A stretch of DNA of 64,000 nt, taken from NCBI GenBank assembly GCA_002773855.1, contig PEZY01000005.1, positions 122,532-186,531 of the forward strand, read 5' to 3'. This document shows, piece after piece, positions 2,555 through 55,757 of this stretch; positions within the stretch are counted from its first letter, which is position 1; every line of letters begins with the position of its first letter. The notes beneath the pieces were generated by a model that saw only the letters and a list, made by a program, of their open reading frames with translations, made no database searches and was not told the origin of the DNA. The translations under genes were made by a program, and so were the position numbers. This stretch comes from Candidatus Buchananbacteria bacterium CG10_big_fil_rev_8_21_14_0_10_33_19. GTDB taxonomy: Bacteria > Patescibacteriota > Patescibacteriia > 2-01-FULL-39-33.

Positions 2555-3685
2555 TTAAAAACAACAGGCTACTTGTCTAGGGGCATTGCATTGACTCAAC
2601 ATCACACTACCCCCTTTGTCATTGGCCAAATTAAAATTCCAAATCGATCCATAAGCCGTAGCACTGCCATCTGTCCAACCAACACAATCATTTATTAGAT
2701 ATGTATCTTTAAAGCCAGCAACTCCAGTACTAATCCAAGCATAACCACTGGTACCAGATAAATCACCAGGATTTCGAGCAATGACCAACATTTCATCAGC
2801 GCTACAATTATGACTACCAGAAAAACTTGTATTGCACGTAGAATTCATACCATTATAACCACCTCGAGCACCATTATAAGTACCAGGTGTTACTAAACCA
2901 GCAAAGGTGGTTATAACACTACTATCTAAACACTTACCATCATCAGTACAAAAATCCGCCGCCGTTACTACGCCACCACCAGAAAATTTTACGCGGTCAC
3001 TACCAGTATTCCAAAACCGCAAATCATTAGTCCCACCGCCATTTGGACCATCATGATAAATACCCCAATGAGTATTGACTCCGGGTACACTTTGAATATC
3101 AATTTCGGCGTTAGCGTTTTCATTATAAATATGTAAATCTTTATTTGGAGTGTCAGTTCCAATACCAACCTTGCCACTTTCATGAATTTTAAAAATAGGA
3201 TTATCAGCACTATCTCGCACATTAACATAAGAATATGGTACCACTGAATTTCTAGATATATATAACCCCTCAGCATTGCCGGTATTAATAGCCACTTTAG
3301 CAAATGACAAGGGCCACGTTGGCAAACCAGTAATCGCTGTGCCAACGCCAATATTACCAGCATTATAAAAGATGCCATGGATATCTTCTTGCCAGACTCC
3401 CAAAACATCAGACCAACTAGTTTGACAATCTGTGCCAGTAATACCAAAACATAATTTAGTAGTAGTCGCTACGCCGCCAATAGTTAACCCCCCAGATTTT
3501 ACCTGATTGATAGAACCAGTATTAAGTGGTGGGGCAACATTGCCGTCTGGTGGCGCTAGAGTTGGTTCTTGCCAAGCGGCTAAAACAAAATTAAGGCTCA
3601 CTAAAAATGCCACAAAAAGCACGGCAGAAAATACAAAGCCGGTTACAAACGAATAAAGTTTTACTGTTTTTTTATCACCTTCCAT
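2555..3685 (-). CDS. Membrane-anchored/secreted paralogue of the preceding gene (376 aa). N-terminal TM helix, HWGIYHDG...LRFWNTGSDRV motif, Cys-rich C-terminus ending CCF.
   Basis: ORF with N-terminal hydrophobic helix. Shares motif with the 152..2524 product. Tandem arrangement with 30-nt spacing. Confidence 0.6.
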   Translation of the reverse strand: MEGDKKTVKLYSFVTGFVFSAVLFVAFLVSLNFVLAAWQEPTLAPPDGNVAPPLNTGSINQVKSGGLTIGGVATTTKLCFGITGTDCQTSWSDVLGVWQEDIHGIFYNAGNIGVGTAITGLPTWPLSFAKVAINTGNAEGLYISRNSVVPYSYVNVRDSADNPIFKIHESGKVGIGTDTPNKDLHIYNENANAEIDIQSVPGVNTHWGIYHDGPNGGGTNDLRFWNTGSDRVKFSGGGVVTAADFCTDDGKCLDSSVITTFAGLVTPGTYNGARGGYNGMNSTCNTSFSGSHNCSADEMLVIARNPGDLSGTSGYAWISTGVAGFKDTYLINDCVGWTDGSATAYGSIWNFNLANDKGGSVMLSQCNAPRQVACCF

Positions 3686-3843: not shown

Positions 3844-4401
3844 ATGGAAAATATTATCTGGATTATCGTAGGTGTAGTTGCCTTAACAATTTTTTGGCTA
3901 ATTGCAATCTACAACGGACTAATCACCTTAAAAAACCGCACCGATGAAGCCTGGTCTGATATCGATGTCCAACTAAAAAGACGTTATGACTTAATTCCTA
4001 ATTTAATCGAAACTGTTAAGGGTTATACTAGTCACGAACAAGAAACCTTAAACCAAGTAATCGCAGCCAGAAATAGCGCCATGAGCCAATCTGGTGGCAT
4101 CGAAGAAAAAGCTCAGGCGGAAAATGCTCTATCCTCTACTCTTAAATCTATTTTTGCTTTAGCTGAAAGCTACCCAGATTTAAAAGCCAATCAGAATTTT
4201 TTAAAACTTCAAGACGAGCTAGCCGATACCGAAAACAAAATCCAAGCTGCTCGCCGATTTTATAATGGCAATGCTCGTGACTTTAATATTAAAATGGAAG
4301 TCTTTCCAAACAATTTAATTGTTAAAGTCTTAAAATTTAAAAAGTTTGATTTTTTTGAAGCTAATGACGAAGAAAAGAAAAACATTGAAGTAAAATTCTA
4401 A
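3844..4401 (+). CDS. LemA family protein
   Basis: 185 aa. N-terminal TM followed by the conserved LemA region (GLITLKNRTDEAWSDIDVQLKRRYDLIPNLIETVKGY). Confidence 0.8.
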   Translation: MENIIWIIVGVVALTIFWLIAIYNGLITLKNRTDEAWSDIDVQLKRRYDLIPNLIETVKGYTSHEQETLNQVIAARNSAMSQSGGIEEKAQAENALSSTLKSIFALAESYPDLKANQNFLKLQDELADTENKIQAARRFYNGNARDFNIKMEVFPNNLIVKVLKFKKFDFFEANDEEKKNIEVKF

Positions 4402-4479
4402 ATTTAATTAAGTAAGCTAATAATCAAACGGGCATTATCTGTCTTTAAAATTATTAGCTTATTTTAATAACCAACACCT

Positions 4480-5367: not shown

Positions 5368-7851
5368 ATGGAAGAAACTTTCGAAAAATTCTCTAACAAC
5401 TACAAAAAATCCCTCCAAGCTGCTGCTGAACTGGCGACTGATCTTCAACATGAGTCTGTTAATCCTTGGCATATCCTTTACGGTTTAATTTGTCAAAAAG
5501 GCAGTGTCGGCGCTGAACTCCTAAATTCTCTAGAATTAAATACTGATAACATTAAAGATACTATTATCAAATTATCACTAGGCGATTTTAAGTTAGAATT
5601 AAAAACCGCTCCGAAATTTTCTGAATCTGCCAAAAAAATAATTCAAAAGTCGGTTAAAATTGCCTATATTAACGATCATAAATATGTTGGTACCGAACAC
5701 TTACTAGCCGCTATTATAGAAGCTAGTGATGATAATATCGAAAAGCTACTTAGTATTCTAAAAATTTCTAAAGCCGAGATAACCTCTCAAGTTATTACGA
5801 TGTTAAAAAGTGCTTCCAAAATTCCAGACTTAACCGAAACTTTTAAAGTTACAGACAAAGATTTAGAATATGATGAATATGATGACTTGGAAAAGCGCCA
5901 ATCTATTTTGGATTTATTTGGCACCGAATTAACTGCTGCCAAAATCCAGAAAAAAATTGACCCCATTATTGGCCGAGACGAAGAACTTTTAAGAATTATT
6001 CACATCCTATCTCGACGTAATAAAAACAATCCAATTATCTTAGGCGAACCCGGTGTTGGTAAAACTGCTATTATCGAAGGTTTGGCCAAAAAAATTGTCG
6101 ACGGTGACGTGCCAGAAGCCTTACTAAACAAAAAAATTTACGCCCTAGATTTAACCTCGACCGTTTCTGGTACTATGTATCGCGGTGAATTTGAAGGTCG
6201 CATCAAACAAATAATTGACGAGGCTAGAAACCGGCCAGAAGTTATTTTATTTATTGATGAAATCCATAATATTGTTGGAACTGGTTCAGCCTCTGGCTCG
6301 ATGGATGCTGCTAATATTTTAAAACCGGCCCTCGCTCGTGGTGAGATCAGATGCATTGGAGCTACTACTTTTACTGATTACCGTAAAAGTATCGAAAACG
6401 ACCCAGCTCTGAATCGCCGATTTCAACCAGTAAAATTAGCCGAGCCCTCCGAACAACAAGCTAAAGAAATATTACACGGTATCAAAAACTATTTTGAAAA
6501 TTTTCACCGAGTCGAAATTAGCGACGAGGCTATTGATTACTCTGTGGAATTAAGTCAAAAATATATTACTGATAAATTTTTGCCAGACAAAGCTATTGAT
6601 TTAATCGATGAAGCGAGTGCGGCTATTAGAGTTAACAAAAAACCCACTAGAGTAGAGCAAAAAATCAAAAAACTTAAATCAGACATTATAGATCTAAAAA
6701 ATAAAAAGAACCAAGCCGTCATCAAAGAGGATTATGACTTGGCCATAAAATTAAAAGACCAGGCTCAAGAATTAGATGATGCATTAACTAAAATAGAAAA
6801 AAGCCTTGAAGCCCAAAAAAATAAAATGATTGGCACTATTTCTGGCCAAAATATCGCCAAAATAGTTTCTAAAGCCACTGGTATTCCCACCGAAGATTTG
6901 ATTTCATCAGAAAAAAGAAAAATCATGCGCCTGGATAATTCCCTGCAAAAGAAAATTATCGGCCAAAACACAGCTACCGCTCTGATTTCTGATTTTATCA
7001 AAAGAGCCAAAGCTGGCTTAACCCCAGACAATAAACCCTTGGCCTCATTTTTACTAGTCGGCCCCAGTGGTACCGGCAAAACTCACACTGCTAGAATTTT
7101 AGCCGAGGAATTATTTGGTGATCGTGATGCTTTGATTAAAATCGACATGTCCGAGTACAGTGAAAAATTTAATACTTCCAAATTAATTGGTGCTCCAGCT
7201 GGCTACGTGGGTTACAAAGAAAGTGGCCATTTAACCGAGAGAGTTAAGCATAAACCCTATTCTATTGTTTTATTTGATGAAATTGAAAAAGCCAATCCAG
7301 AAATATTTGATTTACTATTACAAGTTTTAGAAGACGGCTACCTTACAGATGCCGCTGGTACCAAAATAAATTTTCGCAACACTATTATTTTGATGACTTC
7401 CAATATTGGATCACATCATTTTAGCAAAAAAAACGAAACCATTGGTTTTGATTCTTCAATTATTAATTCAGTAACTAATGATATTAATAATAAAATCATT
7501 GATGATATCAAAGAATTCTTTAAAATAGAATTTATTAACAGATTAGATGAAATAACTTGCTTTTCACCACTATCAGAAAATGACTTAGAAAAAATAACCA
7601 AACTAGAACTTAATGATTTATCAACTAGATTAAACAAAAAAAATATTACCGCTGAATTTGATCAATCAGCTATTAAACTAATAGCCAAAGAAAGCAAACA
7701 AATAGATCAAGGCGCTAGAGGTATTAAAAAAGCCATTCAAAAATTAATAGAATCTAATATCTCCCAAAAAATATTAGAAGACAAAATAATTAGTGGCTCC
7801 AGAATAAAAATAAATACCGAAAAAGAAAAAATTGTTATCAAAATTAAATAA
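5368..7851 (+). CDS. clpC: ClpC/ClpB-type AAA+ chaperone ATPase (Clp N-domain repeats plus two AAA modules)
   Basis: GEPGVGKT and GPSGTGKT Walker A motifs in two AAA domains, Clp_N repeats at the N-terminus, 827 aa. Confidence 0.85.
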
Positions 7852-49828: not shown

Positions 49829-50566
49829 CTAAACTATAACTGAAGCTGTTTGATTGGACTCCTGCCAAGTCCGAAAGTAGCTGGGCTGAACCGATGGTTG
49901 CCAAAACCTCTCCATCAATTCACCAACCACCGCATACAAAAAATGCTTGGCTCGCTGAGCGGCTTCTTTGGTTTTAATTTCATCAGCCGTAATACTATAG
50001 GCGAAACAAACAGCCTGAAACTGAGCGCCAGCCCCAGAAAACACTTGAGCCTCGCCATCTTCAACAGCCCCCGAAACATCATTATTAAAACGCTGAACGC
50101 GATACATGATAGTATAACGACCTTCTGCTGACATTAAAATATCGACCATCGAATAGACACTGGCATAACCACGGCCCAATATAACAGTGGCCTGATAATA
50201 GTCCAGGCCACCTAATCTTTTGATCGAAGCCTCTTCCAGTTCTGGCAATAGTTGAGTGGGCGGTATTTTACGACGGATACAGTAAGTACCGTCTTCTTGT
50301 GGCACATTGCCAACCTTACCTTCCACAACTTTAACAACTTGTTCAAAAAATTCCATTTCAGATAACTTGGGAGCTACAATATAACATCTAATGCCATCAT
50401 CAAAAAACAAAGTATTAATATTTTCAATATTTTCCAAAACATCAAGAGCCAAATCAACGCAATCACCAGTCAAAATAATCTGATGAGTACCACTATAAAA
50501 ATAAGCAGTCACATCATCGCCATTAAAATAAAATCCATTGTCAATTTTTTCTAATTCCTTCAACAT
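49829..50566 (-). CDS. Uncharacterised protein, paralogue A (245 aa) of the GC-rich islet gene 53452..54264
   Basis: Conserved blocks shared with paralogue B: QIILTGDCVDLALDVLENIEN vs QLVLTGECVKPGLEALDAIDG; ILGRGYASVYSMVDIL vs ILGIGFSNRFSMVEIL; RYTIMYRVQRF vs RTFIYRVQKF. RBS GGAG upstream. Confidence 0.6.
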   Translation of the reverse strand: MLKELEKIDNGFYFNGDDVTAYFYSGTHQIILTGDCVDLALDVLENIENINTLFFDDGIRCYIVAPKLSEMEFFEQVVKVVEGKVGNVPQEDGTYCIRRKIPPTQLLPELEEASIKRLGGLDYYQATVILGRGYASVYSMVDILMSAEGRYTIMYRVQRFNNDVSGAVEDGEAQVFSGAGAQFQAVCFAYSITADEIKTKEAAQRAKHFLYAVVGELMERFWQPSVQPSYFRTWQESNQTASVIV

Positions 50567-50670
50567 ACTACATCTCCTGTTTTGCGATTTTTACAACCGC
50601 AGCCTCTTGCTATTAGCGCTACCACGCACTACTAGTTGTGTAAGGTACAAGCCGTTTTGTACGACTTAGT

Positions 50671-50699
50671 ATCTTAGCATAAATAACTATTTTTGTCAA
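50671..50699 (-). promoter_or_regulatory. Sigma70-like promoter for paralogue A (TTGACA-17nt-TAAGAT) followed by a ~100-nt leader
   Basis: Consensus -35 with 17-nt spacer, read on the minus strand. Leader 50567-50665 is unusually GC-rich and hairpin-rich for this genome. Confidence 0.45.
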
Positions 50700-50713
50700 T
50701 AATCAGCAAAAAT

Positions 50714-51404: not shown

Positions 51405-52454
51405 ATGGCTCTCTCAGTTGGCATTGTCGGATTACCGAATGTTGGTAAATCCACTCTTTTTAAAGCTTTAACTAAAAAACAAGTTGACGCTTCTAATTAC
51501 CCATTTTGTACCATTGATCCCAACGTTGGGGTGGTTGCTGTACCAGACGAACGTCTAGATCAATTAGCTAAAGTTTCTGGCTCTCAAAAAATACTACCCA
51601 CCGCCATTGAATTTGTCGATATTGCTGGGCTAGTGGCTGGCGCTCACAAAGGTGAGGGCTTAGGTAATAAATTTCTAGCTAATATCAGAAACACTGATGC
51701 TATTGTTCAAGTTCTTAGACATTTCACTGATAAAGATGTGGCCCACGTTCATGGTAAAGTTGACCCAGAATCTGACAAAGGCACAATTAATTTAGAATTA
51801 ATTTTTGCCGATTTATCTAGTGTCGAAAATCGACTAAACAAAAATGAAAAATTAGCCAGAAGCAATGACAAAGAAGCCAAAGAGTTGCAACCAATTTTAT
51901 TAAAACTAAAACAAGGTTTGGAAAATGAACAATTGGCTATAAATATAATTACTGATGAAGAGGAAAAGGCCTTGGTTAAAGATTTAAATCTCTTGACTAT
52001 GAAGCCAATGATTTATGTTTTAAATGTAGATGAAGACAATGTTTTTCAAGAAACTGATTACATTGCCATTTCTGCTAAAATCGAAGCTGACCTATCAGAA
52101 TTGTCATATGACGAAGCTCAAGAATATTTAACCGAATTAAAACTAGACTCTTCGGGCTTAGATAAATTAATCAGAAAAGCTTATGAGACATTAAACTTGA
52201 TTACTTTTTTTACTTCTGGCCCCCAAGAAGCCCGAGCCTGGACCATTAAAAAAGGTTCCAAGGCGCCACAAGCCGCTGGTGTTATTCATACCGATTTTGA
52301 AAAAGGCTTTATTAGAGCCGAAGTAATTAATTGGCAAGATTTTATTGAGTGTGGTGGTGAAGTCAAAGCCAAAGAAAAAGGTTTAATTAGATTAGAGGGT
52401 AAGGATTATGTCATGGCTGATGGTGATGTTTGCCATTTTAGATTTGCTACTTAA
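51405..52454 (+). CDS. ychF: Ribosome-binding ATPase YchF (Obg-family, C-terminal TGS domain)
   Basis: G1 GIVGLPNVGKST, conserved TIDPNVG, TGS-like C-terminus. 349 aa. Confidence 0.85.
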   Translation: MALSVGIVGLPNVGKSTLFKALTKKQVDASNYPFCTIDPNVGVVAVPDERLDQLAKVSGSQKILPTAIEFVDIAGLVAGAHKGEGLGNKFLANIRNTDAIVQVLRHFTDKDVAHVHGKVDPESDKGTINLELIFADLSSVENRLNKNEKLARSNDKEAKELQPILLKLKQGLENEQLAINIITDEEEKALVKDLNLLTMKPMIYVLNVDEDNVFQETDYIAISAKIEADLSELSYDEAQEYLTELKLDSSGLDKLIRKAYETLNLITFFTSGPQEARAWTIKKGSKAPQAAGVIHTDFEKGFIRAEVINWQDFIECGGEVKAKEKGLIRLEGKDYVMADGDVCHFRFAT

Positions 52455-52648: not shown

Positions 52649-52959
52649 GATATATTTCTTTTATCCTATTTCTTAAAAAGAATATTTCTCTTATTAATTT
52701 TTATTACTAATTATCTTTAATAATAACCTTCTCTCCTACTTCTTTAGAAGAAGTAGGACAAGAATCGCCAGTGAACTCCTTCGTCTATAAAATACCCTTT
52801 AAACTTTATTGGTTTCCAAACTCATTAATTTCATCTATTTATATTGGTCGAAATTAATTCAGACATGCGAAAACTTGGCTTATATAAATAAGCCAACATA
52901 AAGTTTAAAAGGCATTTTATGAAGACTCAGTCGTTATACTGGCCCTATTTATTAATATA

Positions 52960-53137
52960 TTTTATAAATAAATTCGAGCATATGAAAATTTGGATTAAAC
53001 GGAAAGTAAAATGAGTTACAAAGTTTTTACTGTTTGAGGTGATAGCCGAGTTTAAAAACTTTGTTAGAATTTTACTTGAAGTGCCAAATTTTCATCGCTC
53101 GGAGCTTTTGGTTACTTTTGGCAATACAAAAGTAACA
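52960..53137 (+). repeat. ~178-bp structured direct repeat, copy 1 (left boundary of the GC-rich islet). Nested inverted repeats ATGAAAATTTGG/CCAAATTTTCAT and ACAAAGTTTTTA/TAAAAACTTTGT, and a 3' hairpin GTTACTTTTGGCAATACAAAAGTAAC.
   Basis: Near-identical (about 5 mismatches) to 54398-54576. Internal palindromic arms seen directly. Confidence 0.85.
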
Positions 53138-53320
53138 GAAAAAGGAAGTAAAAAAGTGACGAAAAGAGATTTTACTTTCAAAAATACTAATAACGTATTG
53201 TGGATAAAATAACCAACTTATTTACTTACCACACTATATTTATAGTAAAATAGACAAATAAAAAATATCAAAAAAATATCCAAAATAAGCCAAAAAATAA
53301 TAAATATCCACCCCTACCAC

Positions 53321-53349
53321 TTGACAAAATTTGATAGGTGTGCTATAGT
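53321..53349 (+). promoter_or_regulatory. Consensus sigma70 promoter (TTGACA-17nt-TATAGT) driving the GC-rich gene, followed by a ~100-nt leader
   Basis: Perfect -35, 17-nt spacer, near-consensus -10. ATG at 53452 preceded by GGAG. Confidence 0.55.
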
Positions 53350-53451
53350 TTAACTATCGCACAACGCGAGACCTATACTTTATTGGTGTGGGTCGTACTT
53401 TTTAGCAAGACCAAGGGAATTACCCCACGGTCAAAATTGGAGATTTCTAAA

Positions 53452-54264
53452 ATGAAAAAGCGTATTGAATCCAGATTTACGACGGAAATGCAGAATGTCC
53501 CGGCCCAGCTCGTCCTCACCGGCGAGTGTGTCAAACCCGGCCTTGAGGCGCTAGACGCCATCGATGGCCTCGACGATTTCACCGCCAGAGTGAGGGTGAA
53601 GGGTGATGGCTCCAAAGCCGTCATTACAGTGCCGGGATTGAATATCGAGCGGCTAGTGGCCGAAGTGGCCGCCAAAATCGAGATCAATCTGTCCGACATC
53701 CCCGAAAAAGATGGCGGGATCTGGCTCAACAAAGCCGTCCCCCAGTGCATCCCGGTCAAAGACCAGGACATCAAGATTGTCGAAGAAGGTGGTTTCACCT
53801 ACTGGGCAGTTCGCATGATCCTGGGCATCGGGTTCAGTAACCGGTTCTCGATGGTCGAAATCCTGTTGCCCACCGAAAGACGGCAGGAGGCCAGGACCTT
53901 CATCTATCGGGTTCAAAAGTTTCTGAACAAGATGGATGGAGTTATGCCCGATAGCAGAGCACAGACCTTCGGCAACCAGAATACGGCCGTGGCTTTCGCC
54001 TTCGGACAGAGCGACCCACAGAACTTGGAAGGCATGGCCAAAGTGGCCAAGACAATGCTCTACAAGTTTGTTGGTGAAGCGACTGTTTGCCTCTACAGCA
54101 AGAGGGACTCAGCGGCCAAAACCGGTCGGCAAATGCACTTCGCCACCTCGGTATCGGTAGAGCAATCGATGGCGACCCTGGCGGACGCCTTCGACCTGGC
54201 CGACTTCTCTTTTGAGGAAGCCATAGCCGAAGACACCGCGGTCACCGAGACCGCCGCCATCTAA
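53452..54264 (+). CDS. Uncharacterised protein, paralogue B (270 aa), encoded in ~57% GC DNA. Start at MKKRIESR; the ORF-track start at 53338 lies within the promoter.
   Basis: Strong compositional anomaly (GCC/CTG/GGC-rich codons) against the ~33% GC background. Homologous to 49829..50566. Own promoter, RBS and terminators. Confidence 0.6.
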   Translation: MKKRIESRFTTEMQNVPAQLVLTGECVKPGLEALDAIDGLDDFTARVRVKGDGSKAVITVPGLNIERLVAEVAAKIEINLSDIPEKDGGIWLNKAVPQCIPVKDQDIKIVEEGGFTYWAVRMILGIGFSNRFSMVEILLPTERRQEARTFIYRVQKFLNKMDGVMPDSRAQTFGNQNTAVAFAFGQSDPQNLEGMAKVAKTMLYKFVGEATVCLYSKRDSAAKTGRQMHFATSVSVEQSMATLADAFDLADFSFEEAIAEDTAVTETAAI

Positions 54265-54285
54265 GGCACACACCCACCCACACCC

Positions 54286-54315
54286 GAGGGCGGATCACAA
54301 CGTTGATCCGCCCTC
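54286..54315 (+). terminator. GC-rich 12-bp hairpin GAGGGCGGATCA-CAACGT-TGATCCGCCCTC immediately after the islet CDS
   Basis: Perfect inverted repeat. No strong T-run, so it may act with the next hairpin. Confidence 0.45.
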
Positions 54316-54339
54316 AAATTATTTATACTTACTTTTACT

Positions 54340-54363
54340 CAGCACTACTGTGCTGTTTTTTTA
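54340..54363 (+). terminator. Rho-independent terminator CAGCAC-TACT-GTGCTGTTTTTTT
   Basis: 6-bp stem plus a 7-T run. Confidence 0.55.
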
Positions 54364-54397
54364 TTTAATATTTTTTAATGTTTGAATTTTTATAATA

Positions 54398-54576
54398 AAT
54401 ATATAAATAAATTCGAGCATATGAAAATTTGGATTAAACGGAAAGTAAAATGAGTTACAAAGTTTTTATTGTTTGAGGCTTTAGCCGAGTTTAAAAACTT
54501 TGTTAGAATTTTACTTGGAGTGCCAAATTTTCATCGCTCGGAGCTTTTGGTTACTTTTGGCGGTACAAAAGTAACA
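54398..54576 (+). repeat. ~178-bp structured direct repeat, copy 2 (right boundary of the GC-rich islet)
   Basis: See copy 1. Followed by additional related hairpin units: GGTACTTTTTCTAAAAAAGTACC at ~54606-54628 and GTTACTTTTTGTTATCAAAAAGTGAC at ~54658-54684. Confidence 0.85.
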
Positions 54577-54842
54577 AAGAAAAATTACTGTCGCGATTTT
54601 TGCGGTACTTTTTCTAAAAAAGTACCAATGTGATTTAGAATATAATCATGGCTCGTAGTTTTTGTGTTACTTTTTGTTATCAAAAAGTGACGAGAAGAAT
54701 AATTATCAAAGAAAATTAGATTGCTTCGTCCCTCGCAATGACGATATAGGTCAAGAGATTGCTTCGTGCCCATGCCTACAACAGGCAGGCTCGCAATGAC
54801 AGAGATATTAAAATCTACAACAGTCAGATTCACAATAACAAA

Positions 54843-54876
54843 TGTATAGAGATATCTCCAGAGATATCTCTATACA
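54843..54876. repeat. 34-bp near-perfect palindrome TGTATAGAGATATCTC-CA-GAGATATCTCTATACA (contains nested GATATC palindromes) followed by TTTT
   Basis: 16-bp perfect arms. Location between the islet and the folD 3' end. Confidence 0.8.
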
Positions 54877-54892
54877 TTTTAAAAACCACAAA

Positions 54893-54935: not shown

Positions 54936-55757
54936 TTAATTTAGTTTCAAATTTATCTCTAAAACATTTTTCAGTAAACAAGCCACCGTCAGTGGCCCCA
55001 CTCCACCTGGCACCGGTGACACGAAAGCCGCCACCTCTTTTACGCTATCATCAGCATCTCCCACAATCTGACCATTTAATTTATTTATACCAACGTCAAT
55101 TATAATTGCCTCTTTTTTAATCATTTCTTTCTGCAGTGAATTCGGCTGTCCCAAAGCAATAATCACAATATCGTAATCAGCACAATTATCTGGAATTTTA
55201 GAATCACGACTAACACTAGCTATACCAAAAACAGATAAATACTTATCCAACTTGGCGGTATAAATATCACTATTAGCTATCACTAAAGTTTTTTTACTAG
55301 TCAAATCTTCATTAGTATATTTAAGCAACTCCATAATGGCGGCAATAGTTGGTGGCGTCACCTGTTCACTAGCACCACTAGAAAAAAAGCCATCAACATC
55401 CTTGTCCTTAGATATTAAATCAATTATGGCTTGAGTTTCAAAACCTTTTGGTAGTGGCAACTGTAGTAGGATGCCATCAACATCAATATCTTTATTTAAA
55501 AATTCAATTAGCTCGGCTAATTCTTTTTCACTAATATTATCCGGACATAGATATTTATGAAAATTAATACCCACTTCCAAACAAGCTTTTTCTTTACGCT
55601 TAATATAAGACACTGAAGCCTCATTGTCACCCACTAGTACCACAGCCAAACCGGGCTTTTTATTTAAAGTAAATATCTTTTTAGCTAAATCTGATTTTAT
55701 TTTATCGGCCAATTCTTGACCATTTAATATTACAGCTGACATAATTTTATTTAACAC
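54936..55757 (-). CDS. folD: Bifunctional methylenetetrahydrofolate dehydrogenase/cyclohydrolase FolD
   Basis: PGGVGPLTVACLL and the NAD(P)-binding region. 273 aa. Confidence 0.85.
   Translation of the reverse strand: MLNKIMSAVILNGQELADKIKSDLAKKIFTLNKKPGLAVVLVGDNEASVSYIKRKEKACLEVGINFHKYLCPDNISEKELAELIEFLNKDIDVDGILLQLPLPKGFETQAIIDLISKDKDVDGFFSSGASEQVTPPTIAAIMELLKYTNEDLTSKKTLVIANSDIYTAKLDKYLSVFGIASVSRDSKIPDNCADYDIVIIALGQPNSLQKEMIKKEAIIIDVGINKLNGQIVGDADDSVKEVAAFVSPVPGGVGPLTVACLLKNVLEINLKLN

Follow-up and report, generated by a model that had tools for sequence, protein, structure and literature searches.

BIMEs are short intergenic palindromes arranged in mosaics; they occur mainly at convergent and 3′-end sites, vary between strains and species, and do not depend on a transposase next to them. 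BOX elements of Streptococcus pneumoniae consist of boxA, boxB, and boxC modules and have a stable predicted fold, their mode of spreading being unknown. In IS608, a guide segment forms base pairs with another part of the transposon end. Telomerase RNA, SAM-II, and preQ1-II fold into H-type pseudoknots, in which a U-rich first loop lies over an A-U helix.

We analyzed a 64-kb window (the whole stretch of DNA studied here), with a G+C content of about 33%, and compared the repeats located in it with these systems. Both repeat copies lie inside the 2.5-kb spacer between ychF (51405–52454, + strand) and folD (54936–55757, − strand). The element resembles BIMEs and REPs of enterobacteria and pseudomonads in its mosaics of intergenic palindromes, its occurrence in convergent spacers, and its variation at orthologous sites. 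However, it has no GTAG head, no RAYT was found, its unit is longer (181 nt), and its 3′ module, in which a pseudoknot-type pairing occurs, is conserved in sequence across phyla, unlike REPs. Like BOX, it is built from a small set of structured cassettes, but its sequence is unrelated, and BOX is confined to streptococci whereas the 3′ module spans phyla. With foldback MITEs (Correia, ERIC/IRU) it shares a non-coding, intergenic, imperfect palindrome of 100–200 nt with inverted arms; it differs in an extra asymmetric 3′ module, and neither a target-site duplication nor a parent insertion sequence was found. Strand-specific hairpins and a short flank pairing with another part of the end are common to IS200/IS605 ends, PATEs, and our module, but the pairing partner in the module is the hairpin loop, and no TnpA or TnpB was located near the modules. 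The order of parts in the module (5′ strand, U-tract, hairpin strand, loop strand, A-tract strand) is that of the pseudoknots named above, and its U-tract is placed where U·A-U triples could form; in contrast to them, the module lies upstream of no particular gene, belongs to no riboswitch family, and has a third loop of zero length, a non-classical geometry.

Strict membership of the MITE, REP, attC, or retron class fails in each case on at least one defining feature, and membership of the IS200/IS605 class is not supported by the loci examined. We give a probability of about 0.5 to the reading of the unit as a single copy of a non-autonomous, modular or mosaic palindromic repeat, MITE/BIME/BOX-like, native to Patescibacteria (CPR) genomes of the Falkowbacteria and Buchananbacteria kind. 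In the searched literature, repeat families of this CPR group were not found described, and the module motif was not found by sequence strings or by topic.

Repeat element of the ychF–folD spacer and its CPR relatives

The direct repeat family D1 consists of two copies of 181 nt each with 95% identity and a spacing of 1439 nt (Table 1). A nested-palindrome repeat had been predicted here, and the 181-nt unit was confirmed as a real, strongly folded, non-coding repeat element. RNA folding of a 221-nt segment gave −57.1 kcal/mol (z −5.6) for the + strand and −50.6 (z −7.7) for the − strand; folding with DNA parameters gave −36 (z −6.6). The z-scores were calculated against 200 shuffles, none of which was as stable as the native segment.

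The foldback of copy 1, about 130 nt in total, contains, from outside to inside, the UUCGAGC/GCUCGGA stem followed by stems of 12, 9, and 12 bp. Both 12-bp pairings of the original prediction were recovered: the outer, ATGAAAATTTGG (52982–52993) with CCAAATTTTCAT (53084–53095), and the inner, ACAAAGTTTTTA (53018–53029) with TAAAAACTTTGT (53053–53064). The predicted terminal hairpin GTTACTTTTG/CAAAAGTAAC was also present, as a 10-bp hairpin at 53111–53136, 3′ of the foldback. Two further stems, AAGTAAAAT/ATTTTACTT and the outer UUCGAGC/GCUCGGA, had not been listed. The minimum-energy fold does not use the CCGAG/CTCGG pairing proposed earlier: the partner of CTCGG is the 5′ UUCGAGC, while CCGAG lies in the conserved internal-loop motif UGUUUGA...GAGUU. 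This internal loop belongs to a nested hairpin with a variable apical loop, enclosed by the arms, and is common to the foldback in the window and to the copies of Parcubacteria and other CPR bacteria. Imperfect inverted arms of about 40 nt are present, as the terminal inverted repeats of a MITE would be. Every difference between copies 1 and 2 falls in a loop or bulge and spares the stems, and the similarity of the copies begins and ends exactly at structural boundaries.

Additional modules were located in the same spacer. In the 64-kb window, a covariance model built from 81 sequences gave exactly four module matches, which all fall within 53097–54697. The related hairpins predicted 3′ of copy 2 were found at 54604–54626 and 54666–54691. 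The second of these belongs to a third 3′ module, which has no foldback, resembles the type-A terminus CGTAG-TTTTTG... of a metagenome contig (L138), and is the truncated end of another element. A motif reported to follow both copies, AAAGTGACGA(A/G)AAGA, does occur at 53153 and 54684 (at least two matches in 3 of 100 shuffles); AAAGTGACGARAAGA is the 3′ arm and flank of a further, decayed copy of the terminal module and not a separate signal.

Other palindromes are present 3′ of these modules. Hairpins GTCATTGCGA...GAAGCAATC and GATTGCTTCG...CTCGCAATGAC of a second repeat family occur in CPR spacers and inside type-A elements of relatives; related GTCAT...ATGAC hairpins were observed in a rumen proteobacterial MAG (L065). 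At 54840–54879, near the 3′ end of folD, there is a perfect palindrome of 19 bp (2-nt loop), followed by a T-rich hairpin; it is probably a bidirectional terminator.

Table 1. Positions of the repeats, modules, and neighboring elements. Coordinates refer to the window unless a related locus is named.
Feature	Position	Strand	Basis
Separate palindromic element of about 170 nt, just 5′ of copy 1	52770–52940	+	Inverted repeat I6 with 23-nt arms, 91% complementary; fold z −5.7
Repeat copy 1, complete type-A element (foldback and 3′ module)	52963–53143	+	D1 repeat; fold z −5.6; boundaries match L098, L138, and L150
Long imperfect foldback of copy 1, inverted arms of about 40 nt, CGAGCAUAUGAAAAUUUGG...AGUAAAAU	52973–53103	+	Minimum-energy and centroid folds agree
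3′ module of copy 1: helix-A 5′ strand, UUUUG linker (53106–53110), hairpin (53111–53136) with loop as helix-A 3′ strand	53097–53142	+	Covariance model, 54.2 bits
Remains of another module, with the 3′ arm AAAAAGTGAC and the flank GAAAAGA	53148–53167	+	15-mer identical to that after the third module at 54684; sequence reading
Bracketed expression cassette	53321–54362	+	Promoter, leader, CDS, two terminators
Sigma-70 promoter	53321–53349	+	11 of 12 consensus positions
Leader of about 100 nt, then CDS	53452–54264 (CDS)	+	270 aa; G+C 52–59% vs. about 33% in the host
Terminators	54286–54315; 54340–54355 and T-run	+	
Repeat copy 2, complete type-A element	54402–54582	+	95% identity to copy 1; module match of 56.7 bits at 54536–54581
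Variant module, hairpin GGTACTTTTTCTAAAAAAGTACC (54604–54626)	54590–54632	+	Covariance model, 21.1 bits, E 0.0045
Third 3′ module without foldback; hairpin 54666–54691, GTTAC...GTGAC, with a U·G pair	54652–54697	+	Covariance model, 45.1 bits; pattern match
Two GATTGCTTCG...CTCGCAATGAC hairpin modules of another repeat family	54720–54800	+	Sequence; motif also in L073, L150, and L152
Second repeat family, loci noted	Window 54720–54800; L073 2180–2250; L150 5400–5480, 6920–7010, 7285–7370; L152 188–258		
Leader of the 245-aa paralogue	Window 50567–50700; L150 7860–8000; L152 640–783	− (window)	

The same unit was found in other CPR genomes. A Buchananbacteria MAG (L098) contains a short form, in which the outer arms and the 3′ hairpin are kept and half of the interior is deleted. 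The full-length form of L138 has a longer apical hairpin; compared with the window copies, five base pairs are changed on both sides yet remain paired, three of them within the foldback of copy 1, and one pair is broken. The covariation of the inverted arms could, alternatively to selection on a single-stranded fold, come from two co-evolving transposase-binding ends. In L150 (GCA_964361645.1), the arms are those of the window, while the core is replaced by paired GTCATTGCGA...TCGCAATGAC hairpins and the 3′ hairpin by a CCTGCC...GGCAGG hairpin; in one case the 5′ arm is used, inverted, on either side of that core. At 575–765 of this locus, window-type arms surround a different core. Core and 3′ hairpin are thus exchanged between relatives, and the element is a composite of interchangeable modules. 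Palindromic units combined into intergenic mosaics, a feature typical of REPs and BIMEs, are present. The original prediction had named local duplication as the reading to be favored if the unit occurred only here, was not transcribed, and had no compensatory changes; both other occurrences and compensated pairs were found.

Two element subtypes are often arranged head to head, as in L045, L051, L096, L106, L108 (Parcubacteria 0813_bin18), and L138 (4100–4520, − strand). In these arrangements, the GTTAC hairpins are the outer ends of a composite of about 450 nt, like a transposon with long inverted ends.

The 46-nt 3′ module and its pairing

The 3′ module, UUUUG-GUUACUUUU...AAAAGUAAC, is 46 nt long and has a 10-bp hairpin after UUUUG. 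One genome per species was scanned with the hairpin pattern alone, which yielded at least 119 stretches against a rough chance expectation of about 4. The hosts among the matches listed were Patescibacteria, Bacteroidota, Alpha- and Gammaproteobacteria, Burkholderiales, Bacillota, and Balneolaceae; the module recurs in repeat elements of several bacterial phyla, at least six. Single MAGs hold at least eight copies, and many copies are no more than a few hundred bases away from a contig end, which fits repeats that break assemblies. No matches to the module were found in IMG/VR, the phage collection, or E. coli, and in plasmids it was rare, with weak partial matches only.

Although UUUUG was absent from the search pattern, it is invariant directly 5′ of the hairpin in all 81 distinct sequences, and a spacing of exactly 16 nt separates the two GTTAC pentamers in 81 of 81. 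Modules begin with GTTAC, GTCAT, or CGAGC. Hairpin column pair 25/32 alternates between G-C and U-A and is paired in every one of the 81 sequences; the rarer variants GACAC/GUGUC, GCUAC/GUGGC, and GGUAC/GUACC retain the stem. In several families the conserved element extends 3′ of the hairpin. In L065, the modules at 2900–3040 and 4343–4420 are followed by three to four further CAAAAGTAAC-like words with a spacing of 24–32 nt; between two modules of this MAG, 1443 nt apart, lie two tRNA genes and one small ORF.

Helix A is formed by 4–6 nt upstream of the U-tract that pair with the hairpin loop, which gives the crossed order of an H-type pseudoknot. Covariation was evaluated for the 81 sequences in the column register of a MAFFT alignment, which is the correct one; counted in a fixed register from the start of the U-tract, helix A gives a weak signal. 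All four Watson–Crick pair types occur at three consecutive columns (for example, GC 32, AU 16, CG 14, and UA 3). The covariation score was 0.303 compared with 0.128 in shuffles, and none of 500 shuffles reached this value; sliding the partners by one to three columns reduced it to 0.05–0.095. There are therefore two crossed helices with covariation support, as in an H-type pseudoknot. With zero linker nucleotides after the loop, however, helices A and B cannot both be complete, so the pseudoknot is partial or the folds alternate. Helix A is weak (2–3 pairs) in the subfamily to which the window copies belong, where a GGCGG-type loop is conserved instead.

The supported pairs include 63 G·U and 6 A·C, that is, wobble on one strand only; the U-tract is found on the same strand in all GTGAC variants. 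In the covariance model, scores were 54–57 bits for the + strand of the two copies and 26 bits for the − strand (54.2 vs. 26.2 for copy 1).

These data bear on a reading that we regard as possible at well below even odds: the element, or at least the 46-nt module, would be primarily a functional RNA (a small RNA or a transcript domain), its repeat-like spread being secondary, and the pseudoknot with a possible U·A-U triplex would guard 3′ ends from exonucleases or bind a conserved RNA-binding factor. The restriction of G·U pairs to one strand, pseudoknot-type covariation, which is typical of RNA, and the invariant unpaired UUUUG are all in its favor. Moreover, copies within one genome differ and nevertheless remain complementary in helix A (AAGG/CCUU and AAGC/GCUU in Algoriphagus), which suggests selection on each copy. 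The module of Pseudomonas brassicacearum follows, at a distance of about 70 nt on the 3′ side, a match to TwoAYGGAY (RF01731, 48.2 bits), an Rfam family rated as a probable RNA. TwoAYGGAY is a candidate RNA of unknown function with proposed CsrA binding (PMC2864571, PMC4333381); it had no match in the window, the CPR copies, or 19 other loci, and the window element, unlike it, lacks AYGGAY loops. On the opposing side, we identified no convincing promoter upstream and no U-tail after the hairpin, copies break assemblies like mobile DNA, and modules show no orientation bias in same-direction gene pairs (16 vs. 17). Searches of Rfam 15 identified no family matching the window element, either at the gathering threshold or at E ≤ 10, or matching the CPR copies; at the other related loci searched, the one nearby match was TwoAYGGAY.

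More tentatively still, the 46-nt module, a motif that spans phyla, might be read by conserved machinery, either as a recognition or cleavage structure of a trans-acting mobilization system or as a self-contained RNA device; in the latter case, it could be a triplex 3′-end protector, a ribozyme, or a guide-RNA handle before a variable sequence. Conserved machinery in either role would explain why the same 26 terminal bases are found in unrelated repeat bodies of Patescibacteria, Bacteroidota, Proteobacteria, Bacillota, and Balneolaceae.

Other RNA classes were rejected. An intrinsic terminator or riboswitch does not fit the purine-rich flank after the hairpin on the + strand, the CAAAA after it on the − strand, or the lack of a constant downstream gene. 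A hammerhead was considered on the basis of the string CUGAUGAG in Parcubacteria copies; in L051 this varies to CUGAUAAG, so it is not a hammerhead core.

Read-through of the module creates spurious ORFs with ...LLVTFG.TKVT..., as at 53039–53212 and 54469–54633 of the window and at many other loci; gene callers annotated the module as small proteins of 54 and 57 aa in L003–L006.

Genomic neighborhood and possible mobility of the modules

No conserved ORF or protein family recurred beside the module at about 140 loci, where the neighbors were housekeeping genes. Nor did any transposase-like ORF recur within 3 kb of these modules, and neither a parent insertion sequence with matching ends nor a recombinase linked to the element was found. 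TnpA, TnpB, and RAYT adjoined none of them. In a single case among the loci, L128, an ORF with a reverse-transcriptase-like N-terminus (...NLLLAWREFEKGKRDRKDV...) was observed about 1.0–2.1 kb downstream of the module on the − strand.

Both neighboring genes were called for 60 modules, 20 of which lie in convergent and 7 in divergent spacers; in same-direction spacers, the element orientations were balanced (16 vs. 17). This pattern is that of tolerated repeat DNA and not of a cis-regulatory leader. Gain and loss at an orthologous site were evident in the leuS–femAB spacer: it is 745 nt long with two elements in L138, compared with 224 nt in L150 and 290 nt in L152, both without the module. 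The number of loci was one in the 64-kb window, with its four modules, and at least three in the Buchananbacteria MAG. Eight strain contigs were identical over the compared region of about 2.6 kb around the window locus, so no empty site was seen among them.

The earlier description of the unit as MITE-like holds loosely: it is a discrete non-coding foldback, present in other genomes, with gain and loss and exchangeable modules. It does not hold strictly. No target-site duplication was detected in the flanks of the copies in the window, L098, L138, and L150, and since no cognate transposase was found either, strict MITE membership is not established.

The suggestion of IS200/IS605-type ends was not borne out. 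Such ends are part of a wider reading, which we consider improbable, of the copies as ends or non-autonomous derivatives of an HUH single-strand DNA transposon (IS200/IS605 or REP/RAYT-like); the hairpin would be the transposase binding site, and the flank–loop pairing would set the cleavage site. This agrees with the strand-specific folding, with the location of the hairpins at the element terminus followed by a variable flank, and with the short conserved (A)TAAAT directly 5′ of every CPR type-A copy; IS608 likewise pairs a guide segment with another part of the transposon end. However, no TnpA, TnpB, or RAYT ORF was clustered beside the module at the roughly 140 loci or, according to the original prediction, present in the window. 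Unlike in IS608, the 5′ flank covaries with the hairpin loop and not with an external cleavage site; there is no REP-type GTAG head, and in several families the conserved element runs on 3′ of the hairpin.

TnpB omega-RNA and IS110 bridge RNA were rejected together with IS200/IS605, since no such gene was found near the same loci. A retron msr-msd or DGR was rejected because the locus has no reverse transcriptase and the mismatches between the copies are not adenine-specific. A phage or plasmid origin was also rejected: the 1.8-kb region had no match in the phage and plasmid collections, and the module had none in IMG/VR.

Under the preferred reading of a non-autonomous palindromic repeat, the element would spread and be reshuffled as DNA in terminator-side spacers between genes. 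The agent might be a trans-acting enzyme or recombination between copies, both being candidates. Each copy would be kept by selection for its single-strand fold, as RNA if it is transcribed or as ssDNA during replication or transposition, and the U-tract may occupy the major groove where the hairpin consists of A-U pairs, with formation of U·A-U triples.

The bracketed cassette and the orphan gene family

The two direct copies enclose a self-contained expression cassette. Its 270-aa product is 32% identical to the product of the gene at 49829–50566 (− strand). The orphan family that includes this latter gene comprised 15 clusters among 1.84 billion representatives, and all labeled members were CPR bacteria; among 5.8 billion proteins, the bracketed protein matched only itself. 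It had no Pfam, PHROG, or PADLOC match, and no recognizable domain or fold was obtained for the family. The orphan-family genes (49829–50566, − strand, and 53452–54264, + strand, in the window; 5971–6816 and 8001–8744 in L150) have a G+C content of 45–58% in genomes of about 33%, which may reflect frequent recombination or recent transfer. In L150 and L152, genes of this family again adjoin the repeats; the repeats were also found far from such genes.

Comparison of L150 (5735–6940) with the window (53215–54362) revealed 34 identical bases in the promoter around TTGACA...TATAGT; parts of the leader of about 100 nt and both terminators are also conserved, with one terminator stem change compensated. 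The slot in L150 contains a GC-rich CDS of 281 codons, the product of which is not alignable with the 270-aa protein. Judged from these sequences, the expression slot looks conserved, and the gene in it looks either replaced or extremely fast in its evolution.

Orthologues of the 245-aa paralogue have a common promoter and a leader of about 110 nt, GATAAGATACTAAGTCG...GCGCGGTT...ACCGCAAAAC.GGAG, which from its sequence could be a structured regulatory leader. It matched no Rfam family at the gathering score in the whole-window search.

The arrangement of the copies also bears on a very improbable reading, in which the two palindromes of 26–28 bp are site-specific recombination sites (dif-, pdif-, or attC-like) bracketing a mobile cassette of 1439 bp. 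The fixed geometry of the GTTAC pentamers (16 nt apart in 81 of 81 sequences), the foreign-looking and self-contained cassette between direct copies, and the two copies 1443 nt apart in L065 are compatible with it. Against it, the centers of the copies differ (GCAATA vs. GCGGTA), which would block most tyrosine recombinases, most modules elsewhere are solitary and bracket nothing, and flank–loop covariation has no role in a duplex site. Integron attC and dif-like sites were rejected on similar grounds: AAGTAAC and GTTACTT do not fit the attC cores RYYYAAC...GTTRRRY, which are absent, and there is no integrase in the 20-kb neighborhood.

A plain local duplication of an arbitrary, functionless intergenic segment is hardly credible: it would suit the single locus in 64 kb and the identical strain contigs, but the similarity stops exactly at structural boundaries, the differences between copies spare the stems, and the unit is present in other genomes with compensatory changes.

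Under the preferred reading, the two direct copies would provide 181 nt of homology on either side of the cassette, which could then be deleted, duplicated, or exchanged through RecA-type recombination.

The repeats break assemblies and yield spurious ORFs, and a repeat model would improve the assembly and annotation of MAGs. The 46-nt motif, with its clear covariation and the same sequence in distant phyla, is not in Rfam and is a candidate for a new class of structured RNA or ssDNA; cultured carriers of the module are Pseudomonas brassicacearum, Mucilaginibacter dorajii, Sphingobacterium bovisgrunnientis, and Trinickia terrae. Small as CPR genomes are, this one retains a spacer of 2.5 kb that is full of structured repeats. 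These repeats bracket a locus with a conserved promoter, leader, and terminators, between which the GC-rich coding region differs unrecognizably between genomes, and the locus is possibly a recombination hot spot.
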